A DNA stretch of 64,000 nt from Puniceicoccales bacterium (GTDB lineage: Bacteria > Verrucomicrobiota > Verrucomicrobiia > Opitutales > UBA953): NCBI GenBank assembly GCA_031256995.1, contig JAIRPL010000022.1:1-64000 (forward strand), in the 5' to 3' direction. Made by a program: the position numbers and the translations under genes. Of this stretch, positions 9,898-46,558 are shown in pieces; position 1 is the stretch's first letter; every line of letters begins with the position of its first letter. Below the pieces are notes generated by a model. It was given only the letters and a program-made list of their open reading frames with translations. It was not told the DNA's origin and searched no databases.

Positions 9898-10032
9898 CCG
9901 CCCCGCCGCAGGCATCGCCAGGGCGCCGGAGGGCGGGCGCCTTCGCCAGCCTCCCCCTTTTCCCCTTGCCAGAAACAGAAGGCTGGCGAACCTGCCGGAT
10001 AACACTTTCGTCCACTTCCCAAAACACATCCC

Positions 10033-26401: not shown

Positions 26402-26476
26402 GGTGCGGTAGCCAAGTGGTAAGGCCGGGGTCTGCAAAACCCCTATCCGGCGGTTCGATTCCGCCCCGCACCTCCA
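26402..26476 (+). tRNA. tRNA-Cys (anticodon GCA)
   Basis: Cloverleaf folded by hand: acceptor GGTGCGG/CCGCACC; anticodon stem-loop GGGGT-CTGCAAA-ACCCC; T-arm GGCGG-TTCGATT-CCGCC; discriminator T plus encoded CCA. Confidence 0.9.
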
Positions 26477-26571: not shown

Positions 26572-27108
26572 CTATTTTGTTTTTGCGCTGCCATCGTTCG
26601 CCGGCCTGAAGACCAGCACCCTCAACAGCGAGAAATTCAGGAATGGCATCAGGATTGTTTGCGGGATGAACACCACGAGGTAGTGCCAATTGAGTATTTC
26701 GACGCCAACATGCATGATGCCCACCGAGAACAGGAAGCCCGCCAGCGAGGTCATGGCGAATTTCAGGTAGAGCGTCGGGCCGGTCTCCGCGCGGAAACTC
26801 CAGCGGCTGTTGGCAAAATAGGAAAAAACGTTCGCGACGAGGAATGCGGCCCCATTGAACCATTTTTGCCAGTCCTCGCGCAGCGCGGAATCCATCGCAA
26901 ACACCAGTGCGGCCCCCTCGGAAAGCGCCGCGAGCACGCCAAGGTGGAGCAGCGTGTTCACCGCGCCGATGAGGCAGAAAAATACGAATGCCAGGGGAAC
27001 GAGGAGCGCGAACTCAACCTGCCGCGCGTCCTCCGGGCCGACGAACCGGATCCTTGCGCGCGAGGCTGAACGCCGGGTCAGTTTTTCAAAAATGGAATTT
27101 AAGATCAT
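26572..27108 (-). CDS. gtrA: GtrA-family small membrane protein (polysaccharide/lipid-linked glycan translocation)
   Basis: Four TM segments; conserved RFxxVG near the N-terminus and NSRWSF near the C-terminus. Confidence 0.65.
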   Translation of the reverse strand: MILNSIFEKLTRRSASRARIRFVGPEDARQVEFALLVPLAFVFFCLIGAVNTLLHLGVLAALSEGAALVFAMDSALREDWQKWFNGAAFLVANVFSYFANSRWSFRAETGPTLYLKFAMTSLAGFLFSVGIMHVGVEILNWHYLVVFIPQTILMPFLNFSLLRVLVFRPANDGSAKTK

Positions 27109-27274
27109 ATGGCGTCGATCGCGGCCATCGTGTTTGAGGCTCCGTCATTGTCCCGTGGGCGCGAGGGGCGGAAGAAAACATTTCCCATCCCGTTCCGGCA
27201 AGGCACGAGTCATTTGCGCGCGGCGCCAACGCTTTCGCTTCGCCAATCCCGGGTACCGTGGTTTCCTGCCGGTA

Positions 27275-28321
27275 ATGACGATTGCGTTCACATTCGCTGA
27301 AATCCTCGCGCTTGTCGCACCGGAAAGATCCCTGGGGTGCATGGGGGAGGCGCCCATGGAAATCACCGGGATCGCCGCGTTGGACCAGGCGGGGCCGCGC
27401 GACCTGACATTTCTTGGCAACAGAAAATACACGGCGCAAGTGCCCGGGACAAAGGCTTGCATCGTGCTTTTGCCGCTTGATTACGACGGGGTGCCACGCG
27501 ACGGCCAGGTCTTCCTCTTTGTGAAGGACCCCTCGCATGCCCTGGCCCGCCTGTGCGCGCAAACCGAGGCGCGCTTGTGGCCGAGACCCTCGCCGGGGAT
27601 CCACCCCACGGCCATCATCGCGCCCGGCGCGCGACTTGGCGCCAATCTCCATGTCGGCCCCTATTGCGTCATCGGGGAAAATGCCGTGCTCGGGGATGGC
27701 TGCATCCTGGAGGCCTTCAACCACATTGGACGCGAGGCAAAGCTTGGCGCTGACAACTGGTTGAAACCGCGGGCCACCGTTGGCGAATACTGCGAGACTG
27801 GCGCCCGCGTGAAGCTGCAGGTTGGCGCGCTCGTCGGCGGCGACGGCTTTGGCTGGGAAATGGCGGGCGGGGCTTACAAGAAGATCCCGCAAATCGGCAC
27901 CGTGGTGCTGGAGGATGACGTGGAGGTCGGCGCGAACTCGACCATTGATCGCGCGCGGTTTTCGACGACACGGATCGGGGAGGGCACGAAAATAGACAAC
28001 CTTGTGCAGATCGGCCACAACTGCCTTGTGGGGCGCCATTGCATCCTCGTCTCGCAGTCAGGGCTTGCCGGGAGCACGGTGCTTGAGGACTACGTGGCCC
28101 TCGCCGGGCAGGCGGGTCTTGCCGGCCATCTGCGCATTGGCAAAGGAGCGCAGATTGGCGCGCAATGCGGGGTGATGAGCGACATTCCCGCCGGGGCGGT
28201 TGTTCTCGATTCCCCTGCGTTGCCAGTGAAAACCGCGTTCCGCCTGATGGCCCTGAAACAGCGCCTGCCGGAGCTTTTCAAACGCGTCGGCAACCTCGAG
28301 GCGCATTTGGGTCTCAAATGA
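27275..28321 (+). CDS. lpxD: UDP-3-O-(3-hydroxyacyl)glucosamine N-acyltransferase
   Basis: Left-handed beta-helix hexapeptide repeats; GTVVLEDDVEVGANSTIDRA...IGHNCLVG. Start at ATG 27275, because the longer ORF from 26855 overlaps gtrA. Confidence 0.9.
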   Translation: MTIAFTFAEILALVAPERSLGCMGEAPMEITGIAALDQAGPRDLTFLGNRKYTAQVPGTKACIVLLPLDYDGVPRDGQVFLFVKDPSHALARLCAQTEARLWPRPSPGIHPTAIIAPGARLGANLHVGPYCVIGENAVLGDGCILEAFNHIGREAKLGADNWLKPRATVGEYCETGARVKLQVGALVGGDGFGWEMAGGAYKKIPQIGTVVLEDDVEVGANSTIDRARFSTTRIGEGTKIDNLVQIGHNCLVGRHCILVSQSGLAGSTVLEDYVALAGQAGLAGHLRIGKGAQIGAQCGVMSDIPAGAVVLDSPALPVKTAFRLMALKQRLPELFKRVGNLEAHLGLK

Positions 28322-29106
28322 GGCGCATGGGCGCGGTCTCCGTTTACGGCCAGGAGAGCAACCACGCCGCCTGGCGCCTCGCCGCGATGAACATAGCCAT
28401 CCGAGGCATCGACTTCAATTTTGGCAAACGCCCCGCCAACACCTTCCTCAACGACCAGCACCCCGGCCTCCGCGCCGACTTCGTGATGGCCGTCCCGCCC
28501 TTCGGCATCAGAGAATGGCGGGACGGCCGTCTGAAAGGCGACCCGCGCTGGGTTTATGGCACCCCGCCGAAAGGCAACGCCAACTTCGCTTGGGTGCAGC
28601 ACATGCTTTACCACCTCGCCCCGCACGGCTCCATGGCCCTGCTGCTGGCCAACGGCTCCATGTCGTCCAACACCAAGGTCGAAGGCAAAATCCGCCGCGC
28701 CCTCGTCGAGGCCGATCTCGTCGAGTGCATGCTCGCCCTCCCCGGCCAGCTCTTCACCAACACCCAGAACCCCGCCTGCGTCTGGTTCCTCACGAAAAAC
28801 AAAAAAGGCAGGGACGCCTCGCCGAGCCGTCCGCCCGTCCGCAATCGGACCGGCGAAGTCCTCTTCATCGACGCCCGCCAGCTCGGCTACATGAGAAACC
28901 GCGTGCTGCGCGACTTCACCCCCGCCAACCTCGAAAAGATCGCCGGCACCTTCCGCATATGGAAATACGATTCAAAGCTCACGCGAAGTCGCGGAAAGCG
29001 CGGAGAAGAAAAATTAAGCACGTCTTCCCTCCGCGTCTCCGCGCCTCCGCGTGAAACTTCCACCTATTCCGACATCCCCGGCTTCTGCAAATCCGCCAAA
29101 ACCTGA
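28318..29106 (+). pseudogene. hsdM: type I R-M methyltransferase hsdM, 5'-truncated (C-terminal ~260 aa only)
   Basis: Contains the post-motif-I region YGQESNHAAWRLAAMNIAIRGI and motif IV VPPFG, plus the HsdM C-terminal region. The N-terminal HsdM_N domain and AdoMet motif I are absent. Its ATG overlaps the lpxD stop (ATGA at 28318-28321). Confidence 0.8.
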
Positions 29107-29202
29107 AAGGACTCGACTATGACTTCCAAATAATGCCGTGAGCACGGTCAGCCAGAAGCGCGCCCGGCCCGGGTGCGAGGCCCCGCAAGAGGACAACCAG
29201 CC

Positions 29203-30459
29203 ATGAAAAACGAGTGGAAACAAGTTGCCCTTGGGAATGTCGCGGAAATAAACCCTGCGCGAACCCTCAAAAAAGGAATGATAACCCCATTTATTCCGAT
29301 GAATGCCCTTTCTGCACACACTCGTTCACCGGCGAGGATTGATAAGCGCACGTTTATTGGTCAGGGAGTAAAATTCCAAAATGGCGATACGCTATTGGCA
29401 AGGATTACTCCTTGTTTGGAAAATGGCAAAACTGTCTTCGTTTCGGGCTTGCCGGAGATGTGCGTTGCTCACGGTTCGACTGAATACATCGTGATGAGCG
29501 GGAAAACCGGCATTGCTGACAGTTTGTTTATATATTATTTGTCCCGTTCCAATGACTTTAGGAATCACGCGATAACTCACATGGAGGGCACCTCGGGACG
29601 GCAACGAGTTCCAAATGACGTCGTGGAAAAATACAGTCTCCCCCTCCCGCCCCTCCCTGAACAAAAAACCATCGCGCGAATCCTCGGAACGCTGGACGAC
29701 AAGATCGAGTTGAACCGCCGCATGAACGCGACGCTGGAGGCGATGGCGTGCGCCCTCTTCCAGAGCTGGTTCGTGGATTTCGCCCCCGTCCACGCCAAAG
29801 CCGCCGGCCGCCAGCCCTCCGGCATGGACGCCCCCACAGCACCCCTCTTCCCTGCCTCCTTCCAAGACTCCGAGCTCGGCGAGATGCCAGAAGGCTGGGA
29901 GATCAAAAGTCTCGATCAAGTCGCCCAATATCTCAATGGGCTCGCACTTCAGAAATATCCGCCCAATGATGGCACCACCCTTCCAGTCATCAAGATCGCC
30001 CAACTCCGGAAAGGAGACTCCGTCGACGCGGACCGATGCGACTCAAATATACCTCCGGAATACGTCATTGATGATGGCGATGTGCTCTTCTCGTGGTCTG
30101 GCAGTCTTGAAGTCGAGATTTGGTGTGGCGGACGAGGTGCGCTGAACCAGCATCTCTTCAAGGTAACTTCGCACGATTTCCCGCAATGGTTCTATTACCA
30201 TTGGACGCGGCAGCATCTGGATAATTTCCGCCTTATCGCCGCCTCAAAAGCGACCACGATGGGCCACATCCAGCGCAAGCACCTCACTGAAGCAAAGGTT
30301 CTTGTTCCTCCAATGTCGCTGATTAAAACACTGACACCGAGCATCCAGCCGCTGCTCGATAAAATCGTCGCGAACCGCATCCAATCCCGCACCCTCGCCA
30401 CCCTGCGCAATACGCTGCTACCTCAATTTCTGAGTGGCACTCTGCAAATCAACCATTAA
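29203..30459 (+). CDS. hsdS: type I R-M specificity subunit HsdS (two target-recognition domains)
   Basis: N-terminus EWKQVALGNVAEI; central conserved repeat LPPLPEQKTIARILGTLDDKIELNRRMNATLEAMACALFQSWFVDF; second TRD and C-terminal conserved helix. Confidence 0.88.
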   Translation: MKNEWKQVALGNVAEINPARTLKKGMITPFIPMNALSAHTRSPARIDKRTFIGQGVKFQNGDTLLARITPCLENGKTVFVSGLPEMCVAHGSTEYIVMSGKTGIADSLFIYYLSRSNDFRNHAITHMEGTSGRQRVPNDVVEKYSLPLPPLPEQKTIARILGTLDDKIELNRRMNATLEAMACALFQSWFVDFAPVHAKAAGRQPSGMDAPTAPLFPASFQDSELGEMPEGWEIKSLDQVAQYLNGLALQKYPPNDGTTLPVIKIAQLRKGDSVDADRCDSNIPPEYVIDDGDVLFSWSGSLEVEIWCGGRGALNQHLFKVTSHDFPQWFYYHWTRQHLDNFRLIAASKATTMGHIQRKHLTEAKVLVPPMSLIKTLTPSIQPLLDKIVANRIQSRTLATLRNTLLPQFLSGTLQINH

Positions 30460-30472
30460 ACCGACCAACGCC

Positions 30473-32623
30473 ATGATTAACACAGTATGGGGCAGCACAG
30501 ATAAGCCTGTTGCGAGCAAGCAGCTCGCACAAATCCTCAGCGCTGAGGCGGACCTCGACGGAACTCTTTACATCGGCTATCCAATCATTGGCACCCCTGA
30601 AGGCTCGTTTCCAATAGACGCTCTGCTCATTTCGCCTAGCAAGGGTTTAGTTTTGATCAGTCTCGTGGAGGGCAAGGTCCTTCCCGACTATGCGGAGATC
30701 CAAGATGAAGCGTTTAACAAAATGCGGTCAAAGTTACTTCAACATCAGGCGCTGATTCGAAGGCGTGATCTTCAGGTAAAGCCACAAACTCTCACTTTTG
30801 CACCGGCGGTTGCACAACTTCCTGACTGCGAGAAAGACGGAGGCCTAGTGTGCAATACTGACACCCTCCTCTCCGCCATTGGCAATCTCGAAGATTTCAA
30901 TGCTGAGTTCTACAAACCACTGGTTTCTGTAATTCAGGCGATATCGACACTCCGGAGGGGCCGAAAGAAGCGCGAGTTACACAGCCAAACCTCGAGAGGT
31001 TCAAAGGTGAAAGCCTTGGAGGAATCCATCGCCAATCTGGACAGCCAACAAAGTGCAGCAGTTGTTGAAACTTATGAAGGAGTTCAGCGCATTCGCGGGC
31101 TTGCCGGATGCGGAAAGACAATTGTCCTGGCGCTTAAGGTTGCATATTTGCATGCGCGCCATCCGGACTGGCTCATCGCCGTCACATTCAACACGCGCTC
31201 TCTTAAGAAGCAGTTTGAGAATCTCATTACAACCTTCGTTCTGGAGCAAGCGAACGAAGAACCCGATTGGGAGAAGGTCCGAATTATCAACGCTTGGGGT
31301 GCACCGGGCGGCAAAGAACGCACAGGTATTTATTACGAGTTCTGCCGTGACCACGGGGTGGAGTATTCCGATTTTGGTCCCGCCAAAGCGCGCTATGGAT
31401 CAAACAAAGCATTTGAGTCAGTCTGCGACATCGCCCTCCAAGGCGTGAAACAACTTGCGCCGAAATACGATGCGATTCTTGTAGATGAAGCGCAGGACTT
31501 TGCGCCCAATTTTTTGCTGCTCTGTTATGAATACCTCAAAGAGCCGAAGCGGCTCGTATATGCATACGATGAGCTCCAAAACTTAGGCAATAGATCACTT
31601 CCCCCGGTTGAAGATATCTTTGGTAAGAATACAGATGGAACACCTCGTGTCGTTATTCACCCCGCTGAGGCCGGAAAACCTAAGCAGGACATTATTTTGG
31701 ATACTTGCTACCGAAACTCTCGACCAGTCCTTTCAACTGCTCATGCACTCGGATTTGGAGTGTATCGAGACAAGGGGCTCGTCCAAATATTCGAAAATAA
31801 AACTCTCTGGTTTGATATTGGTTATGAAGCAAAAGAGGGCGAAATCGATGACGGAGAACTTGTCACGCTACGTCGCACGCCAGATTCAAGTCCCGATTTT
31901 TTGGAGAGACATTCTTCAGTCGAAGATTTGATCCGTTTTGAAGTCTTTGACTCGGTAGAAGAACAAACTGCATGGCTCGTTGCTGAGATTAAACGTAACT
32001 TGGTAGAGGAAGAGTTAATCCCTGATGACATCGTCGTGATTAACCCCGATCCACTCAAAACCAAGGATGCAGTCGGACCTGCGCGGCAAATGCTCATGCG
32101 GGAAGGAGTGAATTCCAACCTTGCTGGTGTGACGACTATTGCGGATGTCTTCACCGAGCCTGGGACCGTGACTTTTACAGGGATATACCGCGCCAAAGGT
32201 AATGAAGCTGCAATGGTCTACGTGATAAACGCGCAAGACTGTTATGATGCGTTTTTGCCGCGAAATGTGGCACTTGTTCGAAACCGTCTTTTCACAGCAA
32301 TCACACGGTCGAAGGCTTGGGTTAGAGTTCTTGGGGTCGGGAAGACGATGGCCGCCCTGAAAGCCGAATACGAAAAGGCAAAGGCTGCGAATTTCGCTCT
32401 ACATTTTCGCTACCCTACTGAGGGGGAGCGTAAAACCATGCAAACCGTAAACCGGGACATGTCGAAAGCTGAGCAGGAGCGAAGCACTAGACGTCGCATA
32501 AATTTCGCGGAAATAATCGAATCGTTGGATTCAGGCGAAAGCATTCTAGAGGACTATCCCGACGAGCTTGTCAAAAAATTGGAGGCTCATCTAGCGAGGA
32601 AATCCAAACATAAGCGGAAATGA
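30473..32623 (+). CDS. NERD-like N-terminal domain plus SF1-type helicase-like ATPase (DUF2075-like); candidate defence helicase
   Basis: N-terminus LYIGYPIIG...IDALLISPSKGLVLIS (NERD-like); Walker A GLAGCGKT; DEAQ box ILVDEAQDF; C-terminal helicase motif CYRNSRPV. Region is ~50% GC versus ~65% in the flanks. Confidence 0.7.
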   Translation: MINTVWGSTDKPVASKQLAQILSAEADLDGTLYIGYPIIGTPEGSFPIDALLISPSKGLVLISLVEGKVLPDYAEIQDEAFNKMRSKLLQHQALIRRRDLQVKPQTLTFAPAVAQLPDCEKDGGLVCNTDTLLSAIGNLEDFNAEFYKPLVSVIQAISTLRRGRKKRELHSQTSRGSKVKALEESIANLDSQQSAAVVETYEGVQRIRGLAGCGKTIVLALKVAYLHARHPDWLIAVTFNTRSLKKQFENLITTFVLEQANEEPDWEKVRIINAWGAPGGKERTGIYYEFCRDHGVEYSDFGPAKARYGSNKAFESVCDIALQGVKQLAPKYDAILVDEAQDFAPNFLLLCYEYLKEPKRLVYAYDELQNLGNRSLPPVEDIFGKNTDGTPRVVIHPAEAGKPKQDIILDTCYRNSRPVLSTAHALGFGVYRDKGLVQIFENKTLWFDIGYEAKEGEIDDGELVTLRRTPDSSPDFLERHSSVEDLIRFEVFDSVEEQTAWLVAEIKRNLVEEELIPDDIVVINPDPLKTKDAVGPARQMLMREGVNSNLAGVTTIADVFTEPGTVTFTGIYRAKGNEAAMVYVINAQDCYDAFLPRNVALVRNRLFTAITRSKAWVRVLGVGKTMAALKAEYEKAKAANFALHFRYPTEGERKTMQTVNRDMSKAEQERSTRRRINFAEIIESLDSGESILEDYPDELVKKLEAHLARKSKHKRK

Positions 32624-33285
32624 CTCCTCAACAAACCATCAAACAGATAAACGATCTTACGGAGGCGTTCGTTGGGTTGAGCCTTTCGAATGAACAGAAC
32701 TTTCTGGCGACGTATGGCAATACCAACGGGCCTTTCGAGATCACAGTCAGTAACGCCGCTGGTATGTCCGTAGCATTGAAGAACGTCGCTTACAGAGACA
32801 TCTACGTTGAACTCGAAAAGGCGCGATGCTTCAACATTAAGATGCTGGACGGAGCATTGATTACACTTCGCTACCGGTTCCAAGAGGGGGCGATCACTGA
32901 ACATTCATTATCCTATTTCCCATCGCCTGACCTTGAACATTTCCAAAATGACCCGGAGGTGTACTTGGAAGACGAGATCTACGCGGATGTGATCGCTCGA
33001 AATATCGTTCCCTTTCCCGTCCGTTTCGACTTTAGTAACGATGCCAGGAAATTTGTGGATATTCACCATCCGTATTCTCACCTCACGCTTGGCCAATATA
33101 AAAACTGTCGAATACCCGTCTGTTCCCCACTTGGGCCTCTTGTATTCGGAGGGTTTATCTTGCGAAACTTCTACAACACAGCCTTCCGGAAATACTCGGA
33201 GAAGATCCCTTCGAGCGTACTTTTCTTCCCCAAAACGATCACGGTAAACGAATGCAAAATTCCTCACGTAGTTTGCGGCATGTAG
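32620..33285 (+). CDS. hypothetical 221-aa partner of the upstream helicase (possibly DUF2290-like)
   Basis: Start overlaps the helicase stop (ATGA) and shares its lower GC. No motif recognised by eye. Confidence 0.5.
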   Translation: MTPQQTIKQINDLTEAFVGLSLSNEQNFLATYGNTNGPFEITVSNAAGMSVALKNVAYRDIYVELEKARCFNIKMLDGALITLRYRFQEGAITEHSLSYFPSPDLEHFQNDPEVYLEDEIYADVIARNIVPFPVRFDFSNDARKFVDIHHPYSHLTLGQYKNCRIPVCSPLGPLVFGGFILRNFYNTAFRKYSEKIPSSVLFFPKTITVNECKIPHVVCGM

Positions 33286-33329
33286 TCCACCAATATCCCT
33301 AACCGGAGATCTGAAAAAACAAACAACCC

Positions 33330-33806
33330 ATGAGCACCAGGCTTTACCAACTCAACGCCCAAGACTGGTCGCCCGAGACTTTCCGCTACGAAATCTGGGA
33401 GGGCAAACCGTGGCATTGGCGCTACGGCAAGAAACTCGCCAAGGCCCTGCCTGAGACCGGCGACACCATCGTTTTATTCTACGCACCCAGCGGTTGCGAC
33501 GATCCCGGTTTCTACGGATGGGCCGTGCTCGAACGCTGTCACGCCGAGAGCCAGACGCTCTACTTCCTCCCCGCCACCCCGACCAACCACCTCAAAATGG
33601 ATCCGTGGTGGAACGAGGACGCCAAACGCCTCGTGGACGCCATCCGAGGCAAGATGACCCAAGCCACGCGTCGATACAAATTCCACCCGCCGCCTCCGCG
33701 CCGGCCTTCGTCGCTGGCTTGCCGGTTTATAGTTATGGTAATTTCACGCTCTGCCACTCAGCCATGTCTTACGATCCCTCTCCTTCCCTCAATCTCCTGC
33801 GCATAG
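33330..33806 (+). CDS. small EVE/PUA-like protein; C-terminal ~40 codons may be a non-coding read-through
   Basis: GDTIVLFYAPSG...GFYGWAVL resembles the EVE-domain motif GDxVxFYHS...IVGIAEV. Overlaps the RecQ start by 43 nt. Confidence 0.4.
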   Translation: MSTRLYQLNAQDWSPETFRYEIWEGKPWHWRYGKKLAKALPETGDTIVLFYAPSGCDDPGFYGWAVLERCHAESQTLYFLPATPTNHLKMDPWWNEDAKRLVDAIRGKMTQATRRYKFHPPPPRRPSSLACRFIVMVISRSATQPCLTIPLLPSISCA

Positions 33807-35842
33807 GCACCCAAAACCCTCAAGCGGTCTTCCGCGACGGCCAGGAGGATGCCATCCGCCACATCGTGGAAGGTCGCGGACGGTTGTTGGTCATGCAAAA
33901 AACCGGCTGGGGCAAGAGTTCGGTCTATTTCATCGCTACCAAACTGCTGCGCGAGCAGGGTGCTGGACCGGCCATCCTCATCTCGCCCTTGCTGGCCCTC
34001 ATGCGCAACCAGATCGCCGCCGCCAGGCGCATGGGCGTGCGCGCCGTCACCCTCAACTCGGAAAACCAGGGCGACTGGACCGCCGTCGAGGCCGCGATTC
34101 AAAACGACGAGGTGGACATCCTGCTCATCTCCCCCGAGCGGCTGGCCAATCCTCATTTTCAAACCGACGTGCTCGCCCCGGTCGCCGCACGGGTGTCGCT
34201 GGTGGTGGTGGACGAGGCCCACTGCATTTCGGACTGGGGACACGACTTCCGCCCTCACTACCGGCTGATCGAGCGCATCCTGCGTTCGCTCCCGCCCAAT
34301 CTGCGGGTGCTCGCCACCACCGCCACCGCGAACAACCGCGTCCTGGAGGACCTGTGCACAATCCTCGGGCCAGCCTTGGAGATTTCACGCGGCGAGTTGG
34401 GGCGGCCTTCGTTGTTGCTCCAAACCATCCGTCTGCCTCGTCAGGAGGAACGGATGGCCTGGCTGGCCGCCCAGATACCGGCCCTTCCGGGCAGCGGCAT
34501 CATCTACACGCTCACCGTGCGCGATGCTGTGCGGGTGGCTGGCTGGCTGCAATCCCGCGGCATCGCCGCCGAAGCCTACAGCGCCGAAACCGGCGAACGG
34601 CGGGTGAAACTGGAAGACGCCTTGCTTGAAAACCAGGTCAAGGCCCTCGTCGCCACCACCGCGCTCGGCATGGGTTTCGACAAACCCGATCTCGCCTTTG
34701 TGATTCATTACCAGACGCCCGGCTCGGTCGTGGCCTATTACCAGCAGGTGGGACGCGCGGGACGTGCCATCGCCGCCGCGCATGGCGTGCTGCTGAGCGG
34801 GCAGGAAGAGACGAATATCACCGACTACTTCATCGAAAGCGCCTTCCCTTCGCGCACGGAGGTATCCGACGTGCTGGACGCCCTGCGCGCGGCGCCGGAC
34901 GGACTCTCGATCAACGAATTGATGGCCCGCGTAAATGTGAGCCGTGGCCGAATCGACAAGACGCTGCAGTTGCTCTCCCTCGAATCGCCTGCGCCCATTG
35001 CGAAAGATGATACCAAGTGGAAGTTAACCGCCGCCAATTTGGGCGAGGGTTTCTGGCAGCGCGCCGAACGCCTCACCACACTGCGCCGCGAGGAACAGAA
35101 GCAGATGCAGGATTACGTGGCGTTGCGCGAGGGCCACATGGACTTCCTTATCCGTGCCTTGGACGGCACGCCGACGGGGGCTCCCGGCCCACGGCTCGCG
35201 CCATTGCCAGCCACGGTGGACTCCGTACTGGTTGCCGAGGCGGTAGCCTTTCTCCGCCGCACCAGCCTGCCGCTCGATCCGCGCAAGCAGTGGCCAACAG
35301 GCGGACTTGCCGCGTTGGGAGTGACAGGCGGCAACATACCGCCAGATTTGCGCGCCAAACCCGGCAAAATGCTGTGCGTCTGGGGCGACGCGGGGTGGGG
35401 CGATCTGGTGCGCCGGGGGAAGACTCGCGACGGGCGTTTCGACGATGCCTTGGTCGAGGCGAGCGCGGCACTGGTCCGGTCTTGGTCGCCGCAGCCGGCT
35501 CCGGCCTGGGTGACGTGCATACCCTCGCGCCGCCATCCCGATCTTGTGCCCGGCTTTGCGCGTCGGCTGGCTGCCAGGCTTGGTCTGCCGTTTCATCCGG
35601 TGCTTGCCAAGACGGACGACCGCCCCGAGCAAAAGACGATGGCCAACAGCAGCCAGCAGGCCCGCAACATCGACGGGGCGCTGGCGCTCACGGCGCAGGC
35701 GCCCGCCGGTCCGGTGCTGTTGGTGGACGACATGGTGGATTCCAGGTGGACACTTACGGTTGCAGCCTGTCTTCTGGTTCAGGGTGGCAGCGGCCCGGTT
35801 TATCCTTTTGCCCTGGCCTCAACCGCCCACGCCGACGAATGA
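33764..35842 (+). CDS. RecQ-family DNA helicase fused to a C-terminal ComFC-like phosphoribosyltransferase (PRTase) domain
   Basis: RecQ motifs: [52 protein letters not shown], and Arg finger [10 protein letters not shown]. Winged-helix region. C-terminus [15 protein letters not shown]...[12 protein letters not shown]...[15 protein letters not shown] matches the ComF/PRTase PRPP-binding motif. Confidence 0.85.
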
Positions 35843-37182
35843 CCGCTCCACTTTCCCTTAATACTCAGGCTATCCTGCTACTCACTGCTCCGCTGCTTGC
35901 GGGACGGCGTGAGGGCGTGGAGGAACTGCTCAGCCTCGGCGACTACAACCGCCTGGCGCGCAGCCTTCGTGAGGCAAAGCTTCAACCGGCTGATCTGCTC
36001 GGGACGAGACCGGCGGCGAAGGAAGCGATTGCAGCGGGGGCGAAATGGTTTGGCCTGCCCCGCTTGGAAAAGCTGCTGGCCCGCGGATTCTTGCTCAGCC
36101 AGGCGGTGGAGCGCTGGAGCAGTCGTGCGATCTGGGTCGTGAGCCGGGCCGATCCGGGATACCCCCGGCGCCTTAAGGCGAAGCTCAAGGAGGATGCCCC
36201 GCCCGTATTGTATGGCTGCGGCGACGCAACCCTGCTGAATGTCGGCGGTCTCGCAGTGGTGGGTTCGCGTCATATTGATGACGCCTTGATTGAATACGCG
36301 GAAAACACCGGGCGTCTCGCAGCCCAGGCGGGATTGGGCGTTATCTCAGGAGGGGCGAAGGGCATTGATCGCGCCGCCATGAGCGGTGGGCTCAAGGCTG
36401 GCGGCGTGGTGATCGGCGTGCTGGCAGACACTCTGGAACGGGCCGCACTGGCGCGCGATAATCGTGAAGCGCTCATGGAGCGCCAACTCGTGATCATTTC
36501 CCCCTACGATCCGGCCGCCGGCTTCAACGTCGGCCATGCCATGCAGCGCAACAAACTTATCTACGCGCTGGCAGATGCCTCTCTGGTGGTGAGCTCGGAT
36601 TACGAAAAAGGCGGCACGTGGACCGGAGCGGTGGAGCAGCTGGACCGGCTGCGCTTCGGCCCCTTGTTTGTACGCAGCGGAGCGGATGCCCCGACGGGGA
36701 ATCTGGCGCTCTTGAAGCGCGGCGCGATGCCTTGGCCTGAACCGGTGGATGCACCTGCCCTGATGCGCCTTCTGACCGAATCGCACGAGAGGGGAGCAAC
36801 CATCGCAGACCAGGAGGAGCTACCGTTGTCCTTGCACAAGGAGCAGGCTCCTTATGGACGGCAAGACTGCATCCCATTGCCCTCCGCAAACGAAACGCTT
36901 GCAACCCCGGCCGCCATTAAGTCGGCGCCGGTGGCGACCATGACTGCAAATTCAAGTTCCACAGTTTCGGCGGCCGTCCTGTGGCAATTGGTGCAAGAAT
37001 TGTTGCGCAGGGAACTCTGCGAGGCCTTGACCGAGGAGGAAATTGCCGCCCGGCTTGGGGTCAACAAGGCTCAAGCCAAAACTTGGCTCAAGGAGTTATT
37101 GGCGGCGGGAACGCTCGAAAAGGTGAAGAAGAGCAAGCCTGTGCGTTATAGGGTCGTCGGTGGTGACAGGCTCTCGTTGTAA
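35839..37182 (+). CDS. DprA/Smf-like protein (Rossmann DprA/SLOG domain plus C-terminal winged helix)
   Basis: [60 protein letters not shown] is the DprA signature. ATG overlaps the RecQ stop (ATGA at 35839-35842). Confidence 0.85.
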
Positions 37183-37199
37183 GATTCATCCTGAAGGAA

Positions 37200-38100
37200 T
37201 CAAACCATGATCACCAAAGACCAACTCGAACAACAGTGCCTCGGCGGTTCCGCGAAGGCGGCTGGGAAACAGTCTTCGGTCCCGACATCGCGCACGACGG
37301 CTCCGCGCCGGAGCGCGCCAGCTACCGCGAAGTTGTGCTCGTGCAGCGGCTTGCGCGCTCGCTGGCGCGGCTCAATCCGCAGGTGCCGTCCGCCGTGCTC
37401 GACGAGGCGGTGCAGCACGTGCTCAAGCTCGACCATCCTGTCGCCGCGCAGCGCAACCGCGACTTTCACCGCCTGCTGCTCGCCGGCCTGCCCGTGAGCT
37501 GGCGCGAGGGCGACGCGGTCGAACACGATGAACTGCGCCTCGCGCAATTTTCCACGCAGCACCTCGACACCAACGAATTTCTCGTCATCACCAGTTCGCG
37601 ATCAGAGGTCCGAACAAGACCCGTCGGCCCGATCTCGTCGTCTTCATCAACGGCCTGCCGCTCGCCATCATTGAGTTGAAAAATCCCGCCGACGACAGGC
37701 CGACATCTGGAAAGCCTGGCGGCAACTCCAAGCCAACAAGGAGGAGATTCCCGACATTTTTAACACCAACGAGGCCCTCATCATCAGCGGCGGGTTTACC
37801 GCCCGCGTTGGCTCCCTCACCGCCGACCGTGAGCGCTTCATGCCGTGGCGCACGATCAAAAACGAGGACGACAAGCCGGTCGTGGAATTTGAAATCGAGA
37901 AGATCATCCGCGGCTTCTTCGCCCGCGCGCTGTTCTTCGACTACCTCAAGCACTTCATCCTCTTCGGGCAGGACGGCGACCGGATCGTGAAGAAGATCGC
38001 TGGCTACCACCAGTTCCACGCCGTCCGCGAGGCCGTGCATGTGGCCGTGTTCGCCGCGCGGGAAACGGTTCGGGCTGGCGCGGGCCATCTGGCCGCATGA
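37200..38100 (+). pseudogene. hsdR: type I restriction enzyme hsdR, N-terminal nuclease-domain fragment split over at least 3 frames and lacking the helicase motor
   Basis: HsdR N-terminal collinearity across frames: MITKDQLEQQ..., then GWETVFGPDIAHDGSAPERASYREVVLVQRLA, then RPDLVVFINGLPLAIIELKNP, then ADIWKAWRQLQANKEEIPDIFNTNEALIISGG...FMPWRTIKNE... No helicase motifs follow. Confidence 0.75.
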
Positions 38101-38714
38101 TGCGATTGCTCCGGTGCCATCGTCCGAGTGCGTCCCCGGACCGAGGGCGTCCGGGGATAGGTGGGAGGGCTGCGTTGCCCGGAGCGTGTGAGGTTTTCAA
38201 AAACGCCCCCGCCCTCCGGATGGGCTGGGCGCGATCTTGTCGAGCTGGCGTTGCGTCCAGGCGGCTTCGTCGGCCCAGCCGTGTTTGTCATAAAAAGCCT
38301 TGAGGCCACGGCAGCGTTTTACCGGGTCGGACTCAGCGCGGTAATGAAGCGTCCCCAAGCAGACCGGGCAGGGACGCGAATGGCGCGCAGTTGCGCGGGG
38401 AGTGTTTTCAAGGCGAAGGCAGGCATTGCACGATCAGATTCACAAACGAGGTCGCCGCGTTCCCGCGTCGATTGCTCCATCGTTTTACGCCACAGCCCAC
38501 GTCTGCCCCCCCTGAGCGCCAGAAGCCTCCTGCGTCCGCAAAACCGTTCGGACGCGCGCCCGGGCGAATGCGATATCCGCGCCCGCCAGAATCGTGAGGC
38601 CGGAAAAGTGGCCCTCCCGATCCTCATGGCTTGCGGCGCATATGCCTTGCGCCTGACACTGCCAGGCGCATGGGATGCCTCATCTGCCGCAAGGAGGCAT
38701 TCCCTGAACTCAAC

Positions 38715-41700
38715 ATGTCCATTCCCAGTCTGCATAACTCATCGGGCATCCGTGATAACCACCACCGGGGGACCGTGGGCGATTTCCTGCGGGCGGAGCT
38801 TCGCGCCGGGGCGGAGCTCGACATCGTCACCGCCTACTTCACGGTCTTCGCCTACGACAGGCTTCGCGCCCAGCTCGACAACCTCGGCCGCATCCGGCTC
38901 CTCTTCGGCGAGGCCGCGTTCATCCGCAACCTCGACCCCGGGCGCAAGGAGGGCGCGGCCTGCGTCCTTCGCGACGACGGGATCGCCCCCGCCTCCGGCC
39001 TCAACCAGCGCCACATCGCCCAGGCTTGCGCCGCCTGGATTCGCGACAAGGTCGAGGTCCGCTCCGTCACCCGCACCGGCTTCCTCCACGGCAAGATGTC
39101 CCACATCCGCCGGGGCGAGGTCTCCGCCGCCATCGTCGGCAGCTCCAACTTCACCACGCGCGGCCTGGGTCTCGGCGCGGCCAACAACAACGTCGAACTC
39201 AACCTCGTCGTCGACGGCAACCGCGACCGCGCCGACCTCCAGCAGTGGTTCGAGGAACTCTGGAACGACACCTCGCGCGTCGAGGACGTGAAACAGGCCG
39301 TCCTCGACTACCTGCTCCAGGTTTACCGCGACCAGCCGCCCGAGTTCATCTACTTCAAGACCCTCTTCGAGGTCTTCCGCCGCTTCATCGACGAAGGCCG
39401 CGACATCGAGGAAAGCCTGCGGCGCATCCGGCTCCCGGAGACCGGGATCTGGAACTCCCTCTTCGCCTTCCAGAAAGACGGGGCCAAATCCGCCATCAAC
39501 AAGCTCAAGACCCACGGCGGCTGCATCCTCGCCGACAGCGTGGGCCTGGGCAAAACCTACGAGGCGCTCGCCGTCATCAAATACTTCGAGCTGCGCAACG
39601 AGAAAGTCCTCGTCCTCTGCCCCAGCAAGCTGCGCGGCAACTGGGACCTCTATCCCGCCCACTGCGCCAGCAGGCACAATCCCTTCGCGGCCGACCGCTT
39701 CGGCTACACCGTCCTCGCCCACACCGACCTCTCGCGCGAAGGCGGCGCGTCCGGCGCGGTCCAGGAGCTTCGCGACTTCCACTGGGGGGCCTTCGATCTC
39801 GTCGTCATCGACGAGTCGCACAACTTCCGCAACAACACCCTCGGCAAGCCCCGCGAGGACGGCGCCGAACGCCGCAGCCGCTACCAGCGCCTCATGCAGG
39901 ACATCATCCAGTCCGGCGCGCGCACCAAGGTCCTCCTCCTCTCCGCCACCCCGGTGAACAACTCCCTCGCCGACCTGCGCAACCAGCTCTCGTTCATCGC
40001 GGGCGGCGATGTCGCGCGCGACACCCCGGAGGGCCTGGCCGCCGACGCGTTCTTCTCCGGCAATCTCGGGATCCCCTCGCTCAGGGCGACCACCCGCGAG
40101 GCCCGGAAACGCTTCACCGAGTGGTCCAAAAAACCCGTCGAACAGCGCCAGAAAAAAGACCTCATCCACGTCCTCGGCGGCGACTTCATCAGGCTGCTCG
40201 ACGCCATCACCATCGCCCGCTCCCGGAAACACGTCTCCCGGCACTACCAGGCCGAGATGGCCCGGCTCGGCGGGTTCCCGGCCCGCACGCCGCCGGTTTC
40301 CCTGCACCCCGGGATCGACACCGCCGGCGAGTTCCCGCCCTACGACGTGATCGCGGAAAAACTCGCGGAATACAAACTCTGGGTCTTCCGCCCGGCCGAG
40401 CACCTCCGCGCCACCCTCCCGCCGGCCACCGTCGAGCACTACACCCGGCGCATCGGCGGGTTCACACAGCAAGGCCGCGAGCGCATCCTCACCCACATGA
40501 TGCGCATCACGCTGCTGAAGCGCCTCGAAAGCTCCATCGACTCCTTCCGCCGCTCGCTGGTGACCACCTTGGACAAAATCGACCGCCTCGAACAGCGCAT
40601 GGCCGCGTTCGAGACCCGCCGCGACGCCAATCCCGATCTCGACTTCGAGGCGCTCGCCCCCGAGGACGTCGAGGACGACGACCCCGAGCTGGCCGCCGCG
40701 CTCGAAATCGGCCGCCGCGTCACCTTCAAGATGGCGCACCTGGACCTCGACGCCTGGCGCGCCCGCCTCGCCGAGGACCGCCGCCAGCTCAACGGCCTGC
40801 TCAAGCTCGCCGAACCCGTCACCCCGGCCCGCGACGCCAAGCTCGCCGAACTGCGCGCCCGCCTCGCCGCCAAGATCCAGAACCCGCCCCTCGACAAGGA
40901 CGGCCTCCCCAACCGCAAGGTGCTCGTCTTCACCGCCTACGCCGACACCGCCCGCTACCTTTACGACAACCTGCACCGCTGGCTGCGCGAGGACCTTGGC
41001 ATCCACGCCTCCCTCGTCGTCGGCAGCGGCCGGAATGCGTCCACCCTCACGCCCGGCTCCGATTACACCGCGATCCTGACCGACTTCGCCCCGCGCGCCA
41101 AACGCCGCGCCGGCGACCCCGCCGCGCCGCAGGTGGACGTGCTCATCGCCTCCGACTGCATCTCCGAGGGCCAGAACCTCCAGGACTGCGACACCGTCAT
41201 CAACTACGACATCCACTGGAACCCCGTCCGCATCATCCAGCGCTTCGGCCGCGTGGACCGCATCGGCTCCCGCGCCACCGCCGTCCACCTCGTCAACTTC
41301 TGGCCCACCGCCCACCTCGACCGCTACATCAACCTCAAGCAGCGCGTCGAGGCCCGCATGGCCCTCGTCGATCTCACCGCCACCCAGACCGACAACCCCC
41401 TCGACGAGAAACAACTCGAAGATCTCGTCACCACCGACCTCCGCCTGCGCGACCGCCAGCTCGAACGCATGCGCAAGGAGATCCTCGACCTCGAAGACCT
41501 GGAGGACTCGGTGACGCTCGCCGACTTCTCCCTCGACGACTTCCGCGCCGACCTCCTCCGCTTCCTGGAGCTCAACCGCGAGCAGCTCGAAAAAGCCCCC
41601 CCCGGCCTCCACGCCGTCGTCCCCGCCCGCGCCGACCTCCCGCTCACCGCCGGTGGCGGCATCATCTTCTGCCTCCGCCAGAAAGGCGCCGCCGCCGCCC

Positions 41701-42104
41701 GCCCCGCCACCGGGACGGAAAAAATCAACCCCCTCGCGCCCCACTACCTCGTTTACGTGCGCGCCGACGGCGAGGTGCGCCTCGCCTGCACCCAGGTCAA
41801 AACCATCCTCAGCCTCTTCCGCGAGCTTGCCCTCGGCAAAACCGAACCCTGCGCCGAACTCTGCCGCCTCTTTGACCGCGCCACCGCCAACGGCGCCGAC
41901 ATGGGCCACCCATCGCGCCTCATCCGCTCCGCCATCGAGTCCATCACCGCGACCTTCCAGCAAAAACTCGCCACAGGCCTGCAAACCAGCCGCCAGTTCA
42001 TCCTCCCCGCCGTCGAAGAGCAGCCCCGAGCCAACGAAACCGAATTCGAACTCGTCACCTGGCTGGTGATTCATTCCGAACCCGCCACTGCCGGCCTTGG
42101 GTGA
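38715..42104 (+). CDS. PLD-family nuclease domain (single HKD) fused to an SNF2-family helicase, 1129 aa
   Basis: HKD motif HGKMSHIRRGEVSAAIVGSSNFTTRGL; SNF2 motifs ILADSVGLGKT, VVIDESHNFRN, LLLSATPVNN, QRFGRVDRIGS. The last ~125 aa are duplicated at 43973-44340. Confidence 0.8.
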   Translation: MSIPSLHNSSGIRDNHHRGTVGDFLRAELRAGAELDIVTAYFTVFAYDRLRAQLDNLGRIRLLFGEAAFIRNLDPGRKEGAACVLRDDGIAPASGLNQRHIAQACAAWIRDKVEVRSVTRTGFLHGKMSHIRRGEVSAAIVGSSNFTTRGLGLGAANNNVELNLVVDGNRDRADLQQWFEELWNDTSRVEDVKQAVLDYLLQVYRDQPPEFIYFKTLFEVFRRFIDEGRDIEESLRRIRLPETGIWNSLFAFQKDGAKSAINKLKTHGGCILADSVGLGKTYEALAVIKYFELRNEKVLVLCPSKLRGNWDLYPAHCASRHNPFAADRFGYTVLAHTDLSREGGASGAVQELRDFHWGAFDLVVIDESHNFRNNTLGKPREDGAERRSRYQRLMQDIIQSGARTKVLLLSATPVNNSLADLRNQLSFIAGGDVARDTPEGLAADAFFSGNLGIPSLRATTREARKRFTEWSKKPVEQRQKKDLIHVLGGDFIRLLDAITIARSRKHVSRHYQAEMARLGGFPARTPPVSLHPGIDTAGEFPPYDVIAEKLAEYKLWVFRPAEHLRATLPPATVEHYTRRIGGFTQQGRERILTHMMRITLLKRLESSIDSFRRSLVTTLDKIDRLEQRMAAFETRRDANPDLDFEALAPEDVEDDDPELAAALEIGRRVTFKMAHLDLDAWRARLAEDRRQLNGLLKLAEPVTPARDAKLAELRARLAAKIQNPPLDKDGLPNRKVLVFTAYADTARYLYDNLHRWLREDLGIHASLVVGSGRNASTLTPGSDYTAILTDFAPRAKRRAGDPAAPQVDVLIASDCISEGQNLQDCDTVINYDIHWNPVRIIQRFGRVDRIGSRATAVHLVNFWPTAHLDRYINLKQRVEARMALVDLTATQTDNPLDEKQLEDLVTTDLRLRDRQLERMRKEILDLEDLEDSVTLADFSLDDFRADLLRFLELNREQLEKAPPGLHAVVPARADLPLTAGGGIIFCLRQKGAAAARPATGTEKINPLAPHYLVYVRADGEVRLACTQVKTILSLFRELALGKTEPCAELCRLFDRATANGADMGHPSRLIRSAIESITATFQQKLATGLQTSRQFILPAVEEQPRANETEFELVTWLVIHSEPATAGLG
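41703..42070. repeat. direct repeat D1 (~368 bp, ~97% identical to 43973-44340), encoding the C-terminal domain of the PLD::SNF2 protein
   Basis: Base-by-base comparison of the two segments shows only a handful of substitutions. Confidence 0.85.
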
Positions 42105-42213: not shown

Positions 42214-43671
42214 ATGCGTTCCCCTTGGAGTTTCTACGGCCGTCGTGTCGAATTGAGCCAGTTGCAGGCCATTCTTGCCCGGCGTCGCTGGTTCTTTCTC
42301 CAGATATCCGGACGGCGGCGCATCGGCAAAACCACGCTCATTCAGGAGGCCTTGAGCGCCGAGCAACGCGCACGCACGCTCTACCTGCAAATTCCCGATT
42401 CCGATCCCGTTGGAGTTGTCGCCGCCTGTAACGGCTATCTGGAGACTTTTGGGCGGCCTGAGCGCGTGTCCGACCTGGGAGAACTCGCCCGGCTCGTGGC
42501 GCGTCTGGCCGAGGCCGGCCACATTGTGGCCATCGACGAATTCCAATATTTTCACCGCAAGCCGCTCGGTGACTTCTGCTCCCTGCTTCAGGCCGAGGTG
42601 GACCGCCTTGCCGCCCGCGCATCCGAAATCTCCGGCGGGCTTATTGTCCTCGGCTCCCTGCACGCGGAGATGACCGCCCTGTTGGAAAACCGCGATGCGC
42701 CGCTTTTTAATCGCACCACAGACCGGCTCGATCTTGGGCACCTGGACACCGCCTCGATTCTCGAAATCCTGCGAGTCCATGCCGACACCTCTCCACAACG
42801 CCTCCTCTTCCTCTGGAATCTCTTTGAGGGCGTGCCCAAATTCTACCGCGACGCCTACGAGCAGGACGTGCTTGGCGCGGAACGCCGCAAGCTCCTTCAG
42901 CGCCTTTTCTTCGCCAGCTCCTCGCCCCTGCGCGGCGAGGCCGACAACTGGTTCCTTCGCGAACTTCGCGGCCGCTACGACATGGTGCTCCAGCACCTGG
43001 CAAAGCATCCCGGCTGCACCAATGCCGAGATCGAGGCCGCCATCGCCCAGGTATCCCGGGCCGGGGAGACCAAGCAGATCGGCGGTTACCTGAAAATTCT
43101 CACCGAGCGTTACCGCATGATCGAGCGAAAGCTCCCCACCTTCTCCCCCGCCAAGGCGCGGAGCGGCCGCTACTACATTCGCGACAATTTCCTCCGCGCC
43201 TGGCTCTCCGCCCTCCAGCGCCCCGTCTCCGCCACCGCCTTCCGCCCCCTGGAGGAACTCATCACCCAGGCCGACGAGCGCCTCGCCACGGTCGAAGGCC
43301 ACGCCCTGGAGGCCCTCGCCGGCCAGCTCTACGAAGAACGCAGCCGCCTCGGCCTCGGCGATTTCCCGCTGAGTGACCGCATCCACGGCTACTGGGATCG
43401 CGGCGACGTCGAGATCGACCTGGTGGCCGTTTCCGAGCCTGGACAACGCATCCGTTTCGGCACCTGCCGCCGCAACCCGGAAAAACTCCTCTCCTCCCTC
43501 GACAGCCTGCGCTCCGGGGCCGGGTCATTCATCCAGGCCCAGGGACGCTTCCGCGGCTGGAGGTGCGAGTTCGTCGCCATCGCGCCGGAAATCGCCCCGG
43601 ATCTCCGCCACCGCCTGCAACAAGCCGGCGTCATCGCCCAGGACCTGCACGACCTCACCGCCGGCCTCTGA
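42214..43671 (+). CDS. AAA+ ATPase (archaeal-ATPase-like) with a DUF234-like C-terminal domain (predicted PD-(D/E)xK-like)
   Basis: FYGRRVELSQL...FFLQISGRRRIGKTTL (P-loop); Walker B VAIDEFQY; C-terminal DVEIDLVAVSEPGQRIRFGTCRRNPEK. Preceded by a ~110-bp AT-rich promoter-like spacer. Confidence 0.75.
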   Translation: MRSPWSFYGRRVELSQLQAILARRRWFFLQISGRRRIGKTTLIQEALSAEQRARTLYLQIPDSDPVGVVAACNGYLETFGRPERVSDLGELARLVARLAEAGHIVAIDEFQYFHRKPLGDFCSLLQAEVDRLAARASEISGGLIVLGSLHAEMTALLENRDAPLFNRTTDRLDLGHLDTASILEILRVHADTSPQRLLFLWNLFEGVPKFYRDAYEQDVLGAERRKLLQRLFFASSSPLRGEADNWFLRELRGRYDMVLQHLAKHPGCTNAEIEAAIAQVSRAGETKQIGGYLKILTERYRMIERKLPTFSPAKARSGRYYIRDNFLRAWLSALQRPVSATAFRPLEELITQADERLATVEGHALEALAGQLYEERSRLGLGDFPLSDRIHGYWDRGDVEIDLVAVSEPGQRIRFGTCRRNPEKLLSSLDSLRSGAGSFIQAQGRFRGWRCEFVAIAPEIAPDLRHRLQQAGVIAQDLHDLTAGL

Positions 43672-43867
43672 TATCGGGTTGACGCGCGCACCGCGCCAGC
43701 GCCCCTATTGTTCAGAAGACCTCACCGCCGGCCTCTGGCATCCCATCCGCCTCAACCATCCCATCCGCCTCGACCATCCGCCTCATGCCCGAAACCCTCC
43801 ATTCCTCCCTCCGGTCCGCCCTCGCCGCCTTCAACGGCCAACCCCTGCGCGAGGCCGCCCTCGGTTT
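43653..43867. repeat. direct repeat R1 (~215 bp), near-identical to R2 at 46348-46558
   Basis: Starts inside the last codons (…LTAGL*) of the upstream gene. Contains two internal copies of CCTCACCGCCGGCCTCTG and the ATG plus first 29 codons MPETLHSSLRSALAAFNGQPLREAALGFF. Confidence 0.85.
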
Positions 43868-44372
43868 CTTCAAAACGCTCGGCTATTCCAGCCAGCGCAC
43901 GGTCATCGTCCCCAAGTCCGCCCCGCGCACCTTTCTCGGCCTCTTCGCCAAAAACGCTGGCGCCGCCCGCCCCACCACCGGGACGGAAAAAATCAACCCC
44001 CTCGCGCCCCACTACCTCGTTTACGTGCGCGCCGACGGCGAGGTGCGCCTCGCCTGCACCCAGGTCAAAACCATCCTCGGCCTCTTCCGCGAGCTTGCCC
44101 TCGGCAAAACCGAACCCTGCGCCGAACTCTGCCGCCTCTTCGACCGCGCCACCGCCAACGGCGCCGACATGGGCCACCCGTCGCGCCTCATCCGCTCCGC
44201 CATCGAGTCCATCACCGCGACCTTCCAGCAAAAACTCGCCACAGGCCTGCAAACCAGCCGCCAGTTCATCCTCCCCGCCGTCGAAGAGCAGCCCCGCGCC
44301 AACGAAACCGAATTCGCCCTTGTCACCTGGTTGGTGTTGCACCCGTCCGCAGGCCAGGCTTCCACCACGTAA
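43785..44372 (+). pseudogene. chimeric 195-aa ORF: MTase-like N-terminus (from R1) joined in frame to a paralogue of the SNF2 C-terminal domain (D2); probable recombination junction
   Basis: First 29 aa identical to the MTase start; next ~20 aa weakly MTase-like; then FLGLFAKNAGAARPTTGTEKINPL onward is ~97% identical to the SNF2 C-terminus. Confidence 0.5.
43973..44340. repeat. direct repeat D2, the copy of D1
   Basis: See D1. Confidence 0.85.
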
Positions 44373-46072: not shown

Positions 46073-46366
46073 ACCATGCAAGATAAGCCATTGGTAAATG
46101 ATGCCTTGTTTGAGTTGGCTGCCGCCTTGGACGTCCCTGCCACGCGAGTCACCCAGCAAGCCGCCGGGCAAGCCGCCAACCTGCTCCAAGCGGCCATCGA
46201 ATCCGCCACCCGGGAAAACCTGCAGGAGGCGATGAACTTGCAAGACCGCAGGCACTTCCGCCAAATCTGCCCCGAACCGCAGTTCAAGCCCGGTTGGCCT
46301 GAACGCACCATCCCCGGCAAGCCCACCAGTCCCCGCCAGCGCCACCGCCTCACCGCCGGCCTCTGA
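46073..46366 (+). CDS. small hypothetical ORF (~97 aa) ending inside repeat R2
   Basis: ORF in cargo position; ends …RHRLTAGL*, the same tail as the AAA-DUF234 gene because of the repeat edge. Coding status uncertain. Confidence 0.3.
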   Translation, partial: TMQDKPLVNDALFELAAALDVPATRVTQQAAGQAANLLQAAIESATRENLQEAMNLQDRRHFRQICPEPQFKPGWPERTIPGKPTSPRQRHRLTAGL

Positions 46367-46558
46367 TATGGTTGACGCGCGCACCGCGAGAGTGCCCCTA
46401 TTGTTCAGACGACCTCACCGCCGGCCTCTGGCATCCCATCCGCCTCAACCATCCATCCGCCTCGACCATCCGCCTCATGCCCGAAACCCTCCATTCCTCC
46501 CTCCGGTCCGCCCTCGCCGCCTTCAACGGCCAACCCCTGCGCGAGGCCGCCCTCGGTT
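46348..46558. repeat. direct repeat R2 (copy of R1), carrying the start of the giant MTase gene
   Basis: See R1; offset between copies is 2695 bp. Confidence 0.85.

Follow-up and report, generated by a model that had tools for sequence, protein, structure and literature searches.

A probable PsyrTA (RqlHI) toxin-antitoxin pair nested in a decayed type I restriction locus of a Puniceicoccales bacterium

The window examined here, by which we mean the whole stretch of DNA that was analysed, comprises 64,000 nucleotides (nt) of contig JAIRPL010000022.1 from a Puniceicoccales bacterium. An initial annotation had drawn attention to three consecutive, overlapping open reading frames (ORFs) at positions 33,330 to 37,182: a small ORF with an EVE-like product, a RecQ helicase with a ComFC-like phosphoribosyltransferase (PRTase) domain at its C-terminus, and a DprA-like gene. 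All three are found on the + strand at the coordinates originally assigned to them, amid the remains of a type I restriction (hsd) locus (Table 1). The second and third, at 33764-37182, very probably constitute an intact copy of PsyrTA (RqlHI), a described toxin-antitoxin/abortive-infection pair, with the EVE-like ORF belonging instead to the host type I locus as an independent gene.

The mechanical ORF of psyrT opens at 33494, and the sequence together with its homologues points to the ATG at 33764 as the probable start. At the other end of the gene, the psyrA ATG at 35839 shares the tetranucleotide ATGA with the psyrT stop codon, so that for this pair the initial reading of overlap as translational coupling holds. 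When compared with PADLOC models, PsyrT matched PDLC03928 with an E value of 3.3e-271 (residues 8-691 on profile positions 8-688 of 689), and PsyrA matched its model end to end (E 5e-129). A weaker match of PsyrA to ShosA was also obtained; among the 25 PADLOC matches listed for PsyrT there were the PsyrT and helicase families but no ShosT. Among complete E. coli genomes, blastn recovered a homologous pair, annotated as a RecQ family ATP-dependent DNA helicase and a DNA-processing protein DprA. PsyrT and its E. coli homologue are colinear and 67% identical (692 vs 692 aa), and PsyrA is 49% identical to the E. coli partner. The E. coli pair (strain WP2-S18-ESBL-08, L173, NZ_AP021946.1 1431887-1446680) lies at the edge of an integrative conjugative element (trbJ, trbL), with a HigA antitoxin and an ABC-three-component system as neighbours and the core genes yfgI and yfgH adjoining.

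Profile and fold evidence bear out all three of the initial domain assignments. PsyrT matches the Pfam families DEAD and Helicase_C and scores 223.9 bits against NCBIfam recQ_fam (cut-off 219.8), and RecQ structures in the PDB match residues 21-364 in a sequence search. The helicase motifs GWGKS (at residue 48, including K51) and DEAH (at 150, D150-H153) are present. At the C-terminus, the last 223 aa match PF00156 with an E value of only 0.0036, but all 29 of 29 PsyrT homologues match this family (best E 5e-6), and in the PsyrT family profile the loop listed in Table 1 aligns with the phosphoribosyl pyrophosphate (PRPP) loop of PRPP synthetases. A Pfam search with a 234-aa C-terminal piece (35140-35842) gave no match even at E 10, which is a filter effect. 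The closest structural relative of the PRTase fold is the competence protein ComF, and the label ComFC-like PRTase given to this region is correct: the C-terminus of PsyrT has the PRTase domain, including an acidic loop for PRPP binding, by which PsyrTA is recognized. PsyrA matches PF02481 (E 1.2e-34) and, at its C-terminus, helix-turn-helix (HTH) families of Pfam; against NCBIfam TIGR00732 (dprA) it scores 80.9 bits, below the cut-off of 191. Sequence searches of the PDB returned only RecQ cores and DprA, and no solved structure of PsyrT or of PsyrA.

Table 1. Coordinates of features in the window and of domains in the encoded proteins
Feature	Position	Strand	Length	Remarks
psyrT (rqlH)	33764-35842	+	692 aa	RecQ-like helicase with C-terminal PRTase domain
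PsyrT helicase core	residues ~21-364			winged-helix-like region in the middle of the protein
PsyrT PRTase domain	residues ~540-692			PRPP loop [13 protein letters not shown] (V654-D659)
psyrA (rqlI)	35839-37182	+	447 aa	DprA-like, C-terminal winged HTH
PsyrA DprA Rossmann/SLOG domain	residues ~94-265			GGAKGID at 171
PsyrA winged HTH	residues ~388-440			
Small EVE-like ORF	33330-33806	+	158 aa	conserved part 33330-33667 (residues 1-113)
Junction	33668-33763		96 nt	from end of EVE homology to psyrT start; left boundary of PsyrTA cassette
tRNA-Cys	26402-26476			
lpxD-like gene	26855-28321			
hsdM, 5'-truncated	28324-29106	+		~286 first codons absent; directly after lpxD-like gene
hsdS	29173-30459	+		PF01420, E 5.5e-23
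UvrD-like helicase	30434-32623	+		PADLOC 'Helicase' PDLC03002, E 0
DUF2290 protein	32620-33285	+		PADLOC PDLC02999, E 5.7e-96; PF10053, E 6.8e-50
hsdR pseudogene remnant	37207-38067	+		right flank of cassette, begins 24 nt past psyrA stop
Anchor: hsdM	28328-28949			87% nucleotide identity to orthologous hsd loci
Anchor: hsdS core	29645-29898			90% nucleotide identity (L005 hsdS)
Anchor: EVE-like gene	33329-33667			92% nucleotide identity to orthologous hsd loci
Anchor: hsdR 5' part	37205-38068			87% nucleotide identity (L005 hsdR)

The pair in the window shares with PsyrTA/RqlHI the two-gene architecture, the domain order of both proteins and the overlapping junction, and differs from it in nothing architectural; what distinguishes it is its location, inside a decayed type I locus of a Puniceicoccales (Verrucomicrobiota) metagenome-assembled genome (MAG). 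It had been suggested that a RecQ-PRTase fusion combined with DprA might be an undescribed architecture, a suggestion that we abandon because both proteins give full-length PADLOC matches to PsyrTA/RqlHI. The arrangement has been in the literature since 2013-2015 and in catalogues of defence systems since 2022: a preprint by Millman et al. (10.1101/2022.05.11.491447) describes PsyrTA, "also called RqlHI", as a phage-defending toxin-antitoxin system with a DprA-homologous antitoxin and a PRTase-containing toxin, and credits Sberro 2013 and Russell & Mulvey 2015. Its core finding being one more copy of a catalogued defence/toxin-antitoxin system, now from Verrucomicrobiota, this part of the analysis matters little, although the likeness of the PsyrT PRTase to ComF may help in the search for its substrate.

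Two related assemblies were considered and rejected. ShosTA (DprA-PPRT; Rousset 2022; Millman 2022; Pu et al., 2025) requires a standalone PRTase; the ShosT protein lacks a RecQ helicase and couples its PRTase to a pyrophosphatase, whereas the toxin in the window has a full RecQ core, and the best models for the two proteins are PsyrT and PsyrA rather than ShosT and ShosA. Nor is this the ComFA/ComFC/DprA machinery of competence, an analogy already discussed in the RqlHI paper (PMC4670107): the helicase is RecQ-like, in contrast to the DEAD-box ComFA, and is fused to the PRTase, the dprA score is below cut-off, and the pair sits in a defence island among restriction and defence genes and not in a competence operon.

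The published work on homologues offers a possible mechanism and agrees with the defence role first proposed for the locus. E. coli RqlH alone causes SOS induction, filamentation and a raised mutation rate (Russell & Mulvey, 2015; PMC4670107). According to the same study, this toxicity requires the PRTase domain and the aspartate of the PRPP pocket, although the PRTase domain alone is insufficient; inactivating the helicase increases toxicity; co-precipitation of RqlI with RqlH depends on the presence of the PRTase domain; and rqlH and rqlI form an operon. In the related ShosTA system purine metabolism is disturbed by the PRTase toxin, and shut-off induced by T7 Gp0.7 leads to loss of the DprA-like antitoxin, which is unstable (Pu et al., 2025; PMC11961720). 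By analogy with the homologues, the PRPP-dependent PRTase activity of PsyrT would be the genotoxic part, restrained by PsyrT's own helicase domain and by PsyrA bound to the PRTase domain. Phage infection may remove or titrate PsyrA in the window copy as well, either through host shut-off acting on a labile antitoxin, as for ShosTA, or through phage DNA intermediates that would interact with the helicase or with the DprA-like protein. Once released, the PRTase would consume PRPP and damage DNA or nucleotide metabolism, and growth would stop before phage release.

Several observations weigh against the view that the pair is a working defence system. Expression of PsyrTA in the window is uncertain because the surrounding hsd genes are decayed, and a promoter scan of 33000-37600 found no sigma-70-like site, including upstream of psyrT; terminator-like matches in the same interval have the appearance of noise. 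When PsyrTA of E. coli NILS69 was assayed in its native host and heterologously, phage protection was undetected and the expressing strain grew poorly. Russell & Mulvey (PMC4670107) proposed a cooperative beneficial role of RqlH and RqlI on DNA, and they found RqlI absent in 55% of strains that have an RqlH orthologue.

The state of the host locus raises the possibility that PsyrTA is an inactive passenger, kept only by toxin-antitoxin addiction or decaying like the hsd genes around it. The host type I system is indeed defunct, hsdM and hsdR both being dead and a complete hsdM/S/R set therefore missing. In a tblastn comparison with HsdM of Opitutaceae TAV1 only residues 287-535 align, and the truncated hsdM covers positions 73-281 of the 311 in the N6_Mtase profile. 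The TAV1 HsdR aligns in four pieces, in three different frames, that together cover residues 1-288 of 1061, such that the pair does lie, as was first noted, between hsdS and a dead hsdR. The 5' truncation of hsdM, the frameshifted hsdR stump, the truncation of the EVE-like gene and the missing promoter-like site all favour a passenger. Against it, both PsyrTA genes have full-length reading frames that are colinear with active homologues, the catalytic motifs are all intact and the ATGA coupling is kept, and we regard this explanation as improbable compared with an intact PsyrTA.

How PsyrTA is distributed bears on a different alternative. Using one genome per species, we found relatives in at least 599 species genomes and examined the neighbours of the best 80 loci (80 species). 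These 80 show 47 to 75% identity and span Verrucomicrobiota, Nitrospirae, Chloroflexi and Actinomycetota, including Mycobacterium (64%), as well as Pseudomonas, Providencia, cyanobacteria and others. Directly downstream of psyrT lies psyrA in 74 of the 80 loci, and three of the six exceptions end at a contig edge. This patchy spread is the pattern of a mobile system and not of a housekeeping gene. A housekeeping function in DNA repair or uptake, with PsyrT as a RecQ-like repair helicase and PsyrA as a DprA-type mediator, would fit the finding that RqlH of M. smegmatis is an active RecQ-family helicase, the cooperative role proposed by the RqlHI authors, the resemblance of the PRTase fold to ComF and the negative result with NILS69. 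It is, however, hard to reconcile with the scattering of 47-75% identical copies across unrelated phyla, with the position of the pair, which lies between other defence cassettes in a decayed restriction locus, with the E. coli copy on an integrative conjugative element adjoining another defence system, and with the toxin-antitoxin behaviour and phage defence published for homologues. We therefore consider a housekeeping role very unlikely.

The third ORF of the initial annotation, the small one, belongs to a family with 79 homologues, identity down to 43% and a typical length of 136-141 aa. In comparisons with the two copies of the gene in Opitutaceae TAV1, third codon positions hold most of the differences (22/28 and 27/40), which indicates purifying selection. 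The ORF product had no match in NCBIfam, PADLOC or Pfam, including EVE (PF01878), at the gathering score; Pfam EVE is matched by 3 of 62 members of the family (best E 0.0015), and the family profile retrieved only chance PsaC matches from PDB sequences. The protein is predicted by an AlphaFold2 model of moderate quality (mean pLDDT 59, core ~70-80) to fold into a PUA-like beta-barrel, to which solved EVE structures come closest. Both of the structure searches rank EVE proteins first, the top Foldseek hits being 2ar1, 2eve and 2g2x (probability 0.99-1.0, with low TM scores), and we assign the protein as EVE/PUA-like with moderate confidence. Many aromatic residues are invariant in the family, which is compatible with an aromatic pocket but proves nothing about the binding of modified bases.

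Past residue 113 the protein departs from the conserved C-terminal helix of its family. Its last 45 residues are a non-native read-through of low model confidence that reaches a stop inside psyrT, which the ORF overlaps at its start by 43 nt. It is at codon 113, at position 33667, that homology to the TAV1 (L005) and L001 loci stops, and the window becomes homologous to other psyrT loci between 33762 and 33830. With a recombination junction located inside the small ORF, its overlap with psyrT is a junction artefact, and translational coupling, upheld for psyrT and psyrA, has to be given up for these two genes.

The initial annotation had treated the three genes as one unit, and a novel three-component system could be imagined in which the EVE-like protein recognizes modified bases of invading DNA and signals to the RecQ-PRTase/DprA pair. 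The genes are adjacent, on the same strand and physically overlapping, the small protein has an EVE-like fold, and EVE domains are frequent companions of toxin-antitoxin and restriction modules (Bell et al., 2020; PMC7641849). However, a homologue of the small ORF was found in none of the 80 PsyrTA loci, with flanks of up to 7 kb, PsyrTA occurs in none of the EVE-gene loci examined, and the conserved C-terminal helix of the EVE-like gene is lost at the very point where it ceases to be homologous to the orthologous hsd loci. This co-occurrence survey largely refutes the three-component reading, which we judge extremely improbable; the small ORF was accordingly rejected as a component of PsyrTA, its homologues being found with other cargo in type I loci.

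What those homologues accompany can be seen in related loci. In TAV1 (L005) the order is hsdM, hsdS, a ParA-like gene, HEPN, EVE copy 1, DUF6731, a 160-aa gene, EVE copy 2, HipA_2, DUF3037 and hsdR; in L001 the EVE-like gene lies between hsdS and hsdR, together with a 303-aa gene, HipA_2 and DUF3037; and L170 has hsdM, hsdS, DUF6119, SIR2 (PDC-S65), EVE, a PLD protein and hsdR. The EVE-like gene is directly upstream of hsdR in L094 and L096 and within or beside hsd loci in L089 and L087. More distant family members have MmeI-like methyltransferase neighbours or no clear defence context, and in 17 distinct EVE-family loci the type I families are the commonest neighbours, yet in only about a third, so that the idea of an obligate association of the family with type I restriction had to be softened. 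Standalone EVE proteins have been tied to type I restriction systems before, mostly in archaea (Bell et al., 2020; PMC7641849). The gene in the window resembles these in encoding a small single-domain EVE-like protein inside hsdM/S/R loci, and differs in being bacterial and from a family too divergent for Pfam EVE; it can be regarded as no more than a divergent bacterial representative of a known kind.

The hsd locus of the window is orthologous at the nucleotide level to those of TAV1 and L001, and L170 is counted as orthologous too. Four anchors are conserved (Table 1), and the sequence between them differs throughout. Because homology breaks off at 33667 and the hsdR remnant begins 24 nt past the psyrA stop, the PsyrTA cassette can be delimited to 33668-37204. 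It was inserted or exchanged between the EVE-like gene and hsdR, an event that cut off the ~25 last EVE-like codons, and the host type I locus may be a hotspot at which defence cassettes are exchanged. Breakpoints fall inside or at the edges of anchors: at EVE codon 113 in the window, in a frameshifted additional EVE copy in TAV1 and in a duplicated hsdR 5' fragment in L001. In TAV1, the two EVE-like copies (10001-10417, frameshifted, and 11887-12297), each ~92% identical in nucleotide sequence to that of the window, bracket the DUF6731 cassette, and L001 contains an extra hsdR 5'-end fragment at 6597-6758; these duplications have the appearance of scars left when cassettes were exchanged through recombination at the conserved anchors.

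Type I restriction genes adjoin PsyrTA in 8 of the 80 species (L007, L013, L019, L025, L045, L046, L052 and L078), and two of them, Providencia heimbachae (L078) and a Verrucomicrobiae MAG (L013), have the complete arrangement hsdM-hsdS-PsyrTA-hsdR. Since the hsdR genes beside PsyrTA are just ~30-50% identical, nesting in hsd loci seems to be recurrent and independent. The arrangement is reminiscent of PrrC-EcoprrI, in which a toxic effector module is likewise nested between type I restriction genes, although there is no evidence that a restriction enzyme controls PsyrTA, and the restriction system of the window is dead. One may speculate that the hsdS-hsdR gap of this type I lineage is a cassette-exchange hotspot anchored by hsdS, the EVE-like gene and the 5' end of hsdR, and that PsyrTA serves there as a PrrC-like back-up that fires when restriction is disabled, a proposal that we put forward tentatively and think rather doubtful. 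If it is true, the recurrence of PsyrTA in hsd loci could reflect such a back-up role. The view of hsd loci as cassette hotspots with fixed anchors, taken together with the frequency of PsyrTA beside hsd genes, is the sole angle of this analysis that is even mildly new.

A complete known defence pair, Helicase+DUF2290, separates hsdS from the EVE-like gene; its two genes have overlapping ends and a GC content of 0.48-0.52 vs 0.61-0.66 in the flanks. PADLOC thus finds other defence systems adjoining PsyrTA, in agreement with the defence-island setting that had been described. The locus illustrates the swapping of defence cassettes inside a type I operon: PsyrTA and Helicase-DUF2290 are the cargo here, orthologous loci carry HipA_2/DUF3037, SIR2, a PLD protein or ParA+HEPN in their place, and the EVE-like gene is the recurring fixed point.

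Further downstream, direct repeats at 41659-41958 / 43927-44226 (94% identical) and 43677-43871 / 46370-46563 (95-99%) duplicate the 3' end of a PLD+SNF2 gene (38631-42104) and the 5' region of an MmeI-like methyltransferase ORF (46303-51138). The ORF at 43785-44372 is a chimera of these two fragments, and the cargo genes between the repeat copies show the same scar pattern as the hsd locus. They include an AAA ATPase with DUF234 (42214-43671), a full-length match to the PADLOC candidate PDC-S27 (E 1e-225), and a 488-aa protein (44420-45886) with only weak matches, to models associated with prokaryotic Argonautes. The ORF at 46303-51138 encodes 1611 aa with type IIG/MmeI-like and PglX-like methyltransferase matches, and its C-terminal domain (residues 1379-1603) matches the PADLOC candidate PDC-M04A; an arrangement similar to the one that this ORF forms with the PLD+SNF2 gene is seen beside an EVE-like gene in L168. 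An Rfam search over 25-53 kb of the window found the tRNA-Cys alone. On the other side, a 1649-aa ORF (21151-26100) has a very long low-complexity N-terminal part that is extremely rich in Ala, Glu and Arg, with local GC content up to 0.76, followed by ~350 C-terminal aa that have, by eye only, the look of a membrane-fusion (HlyD/MacA-type) efflux adaptor.

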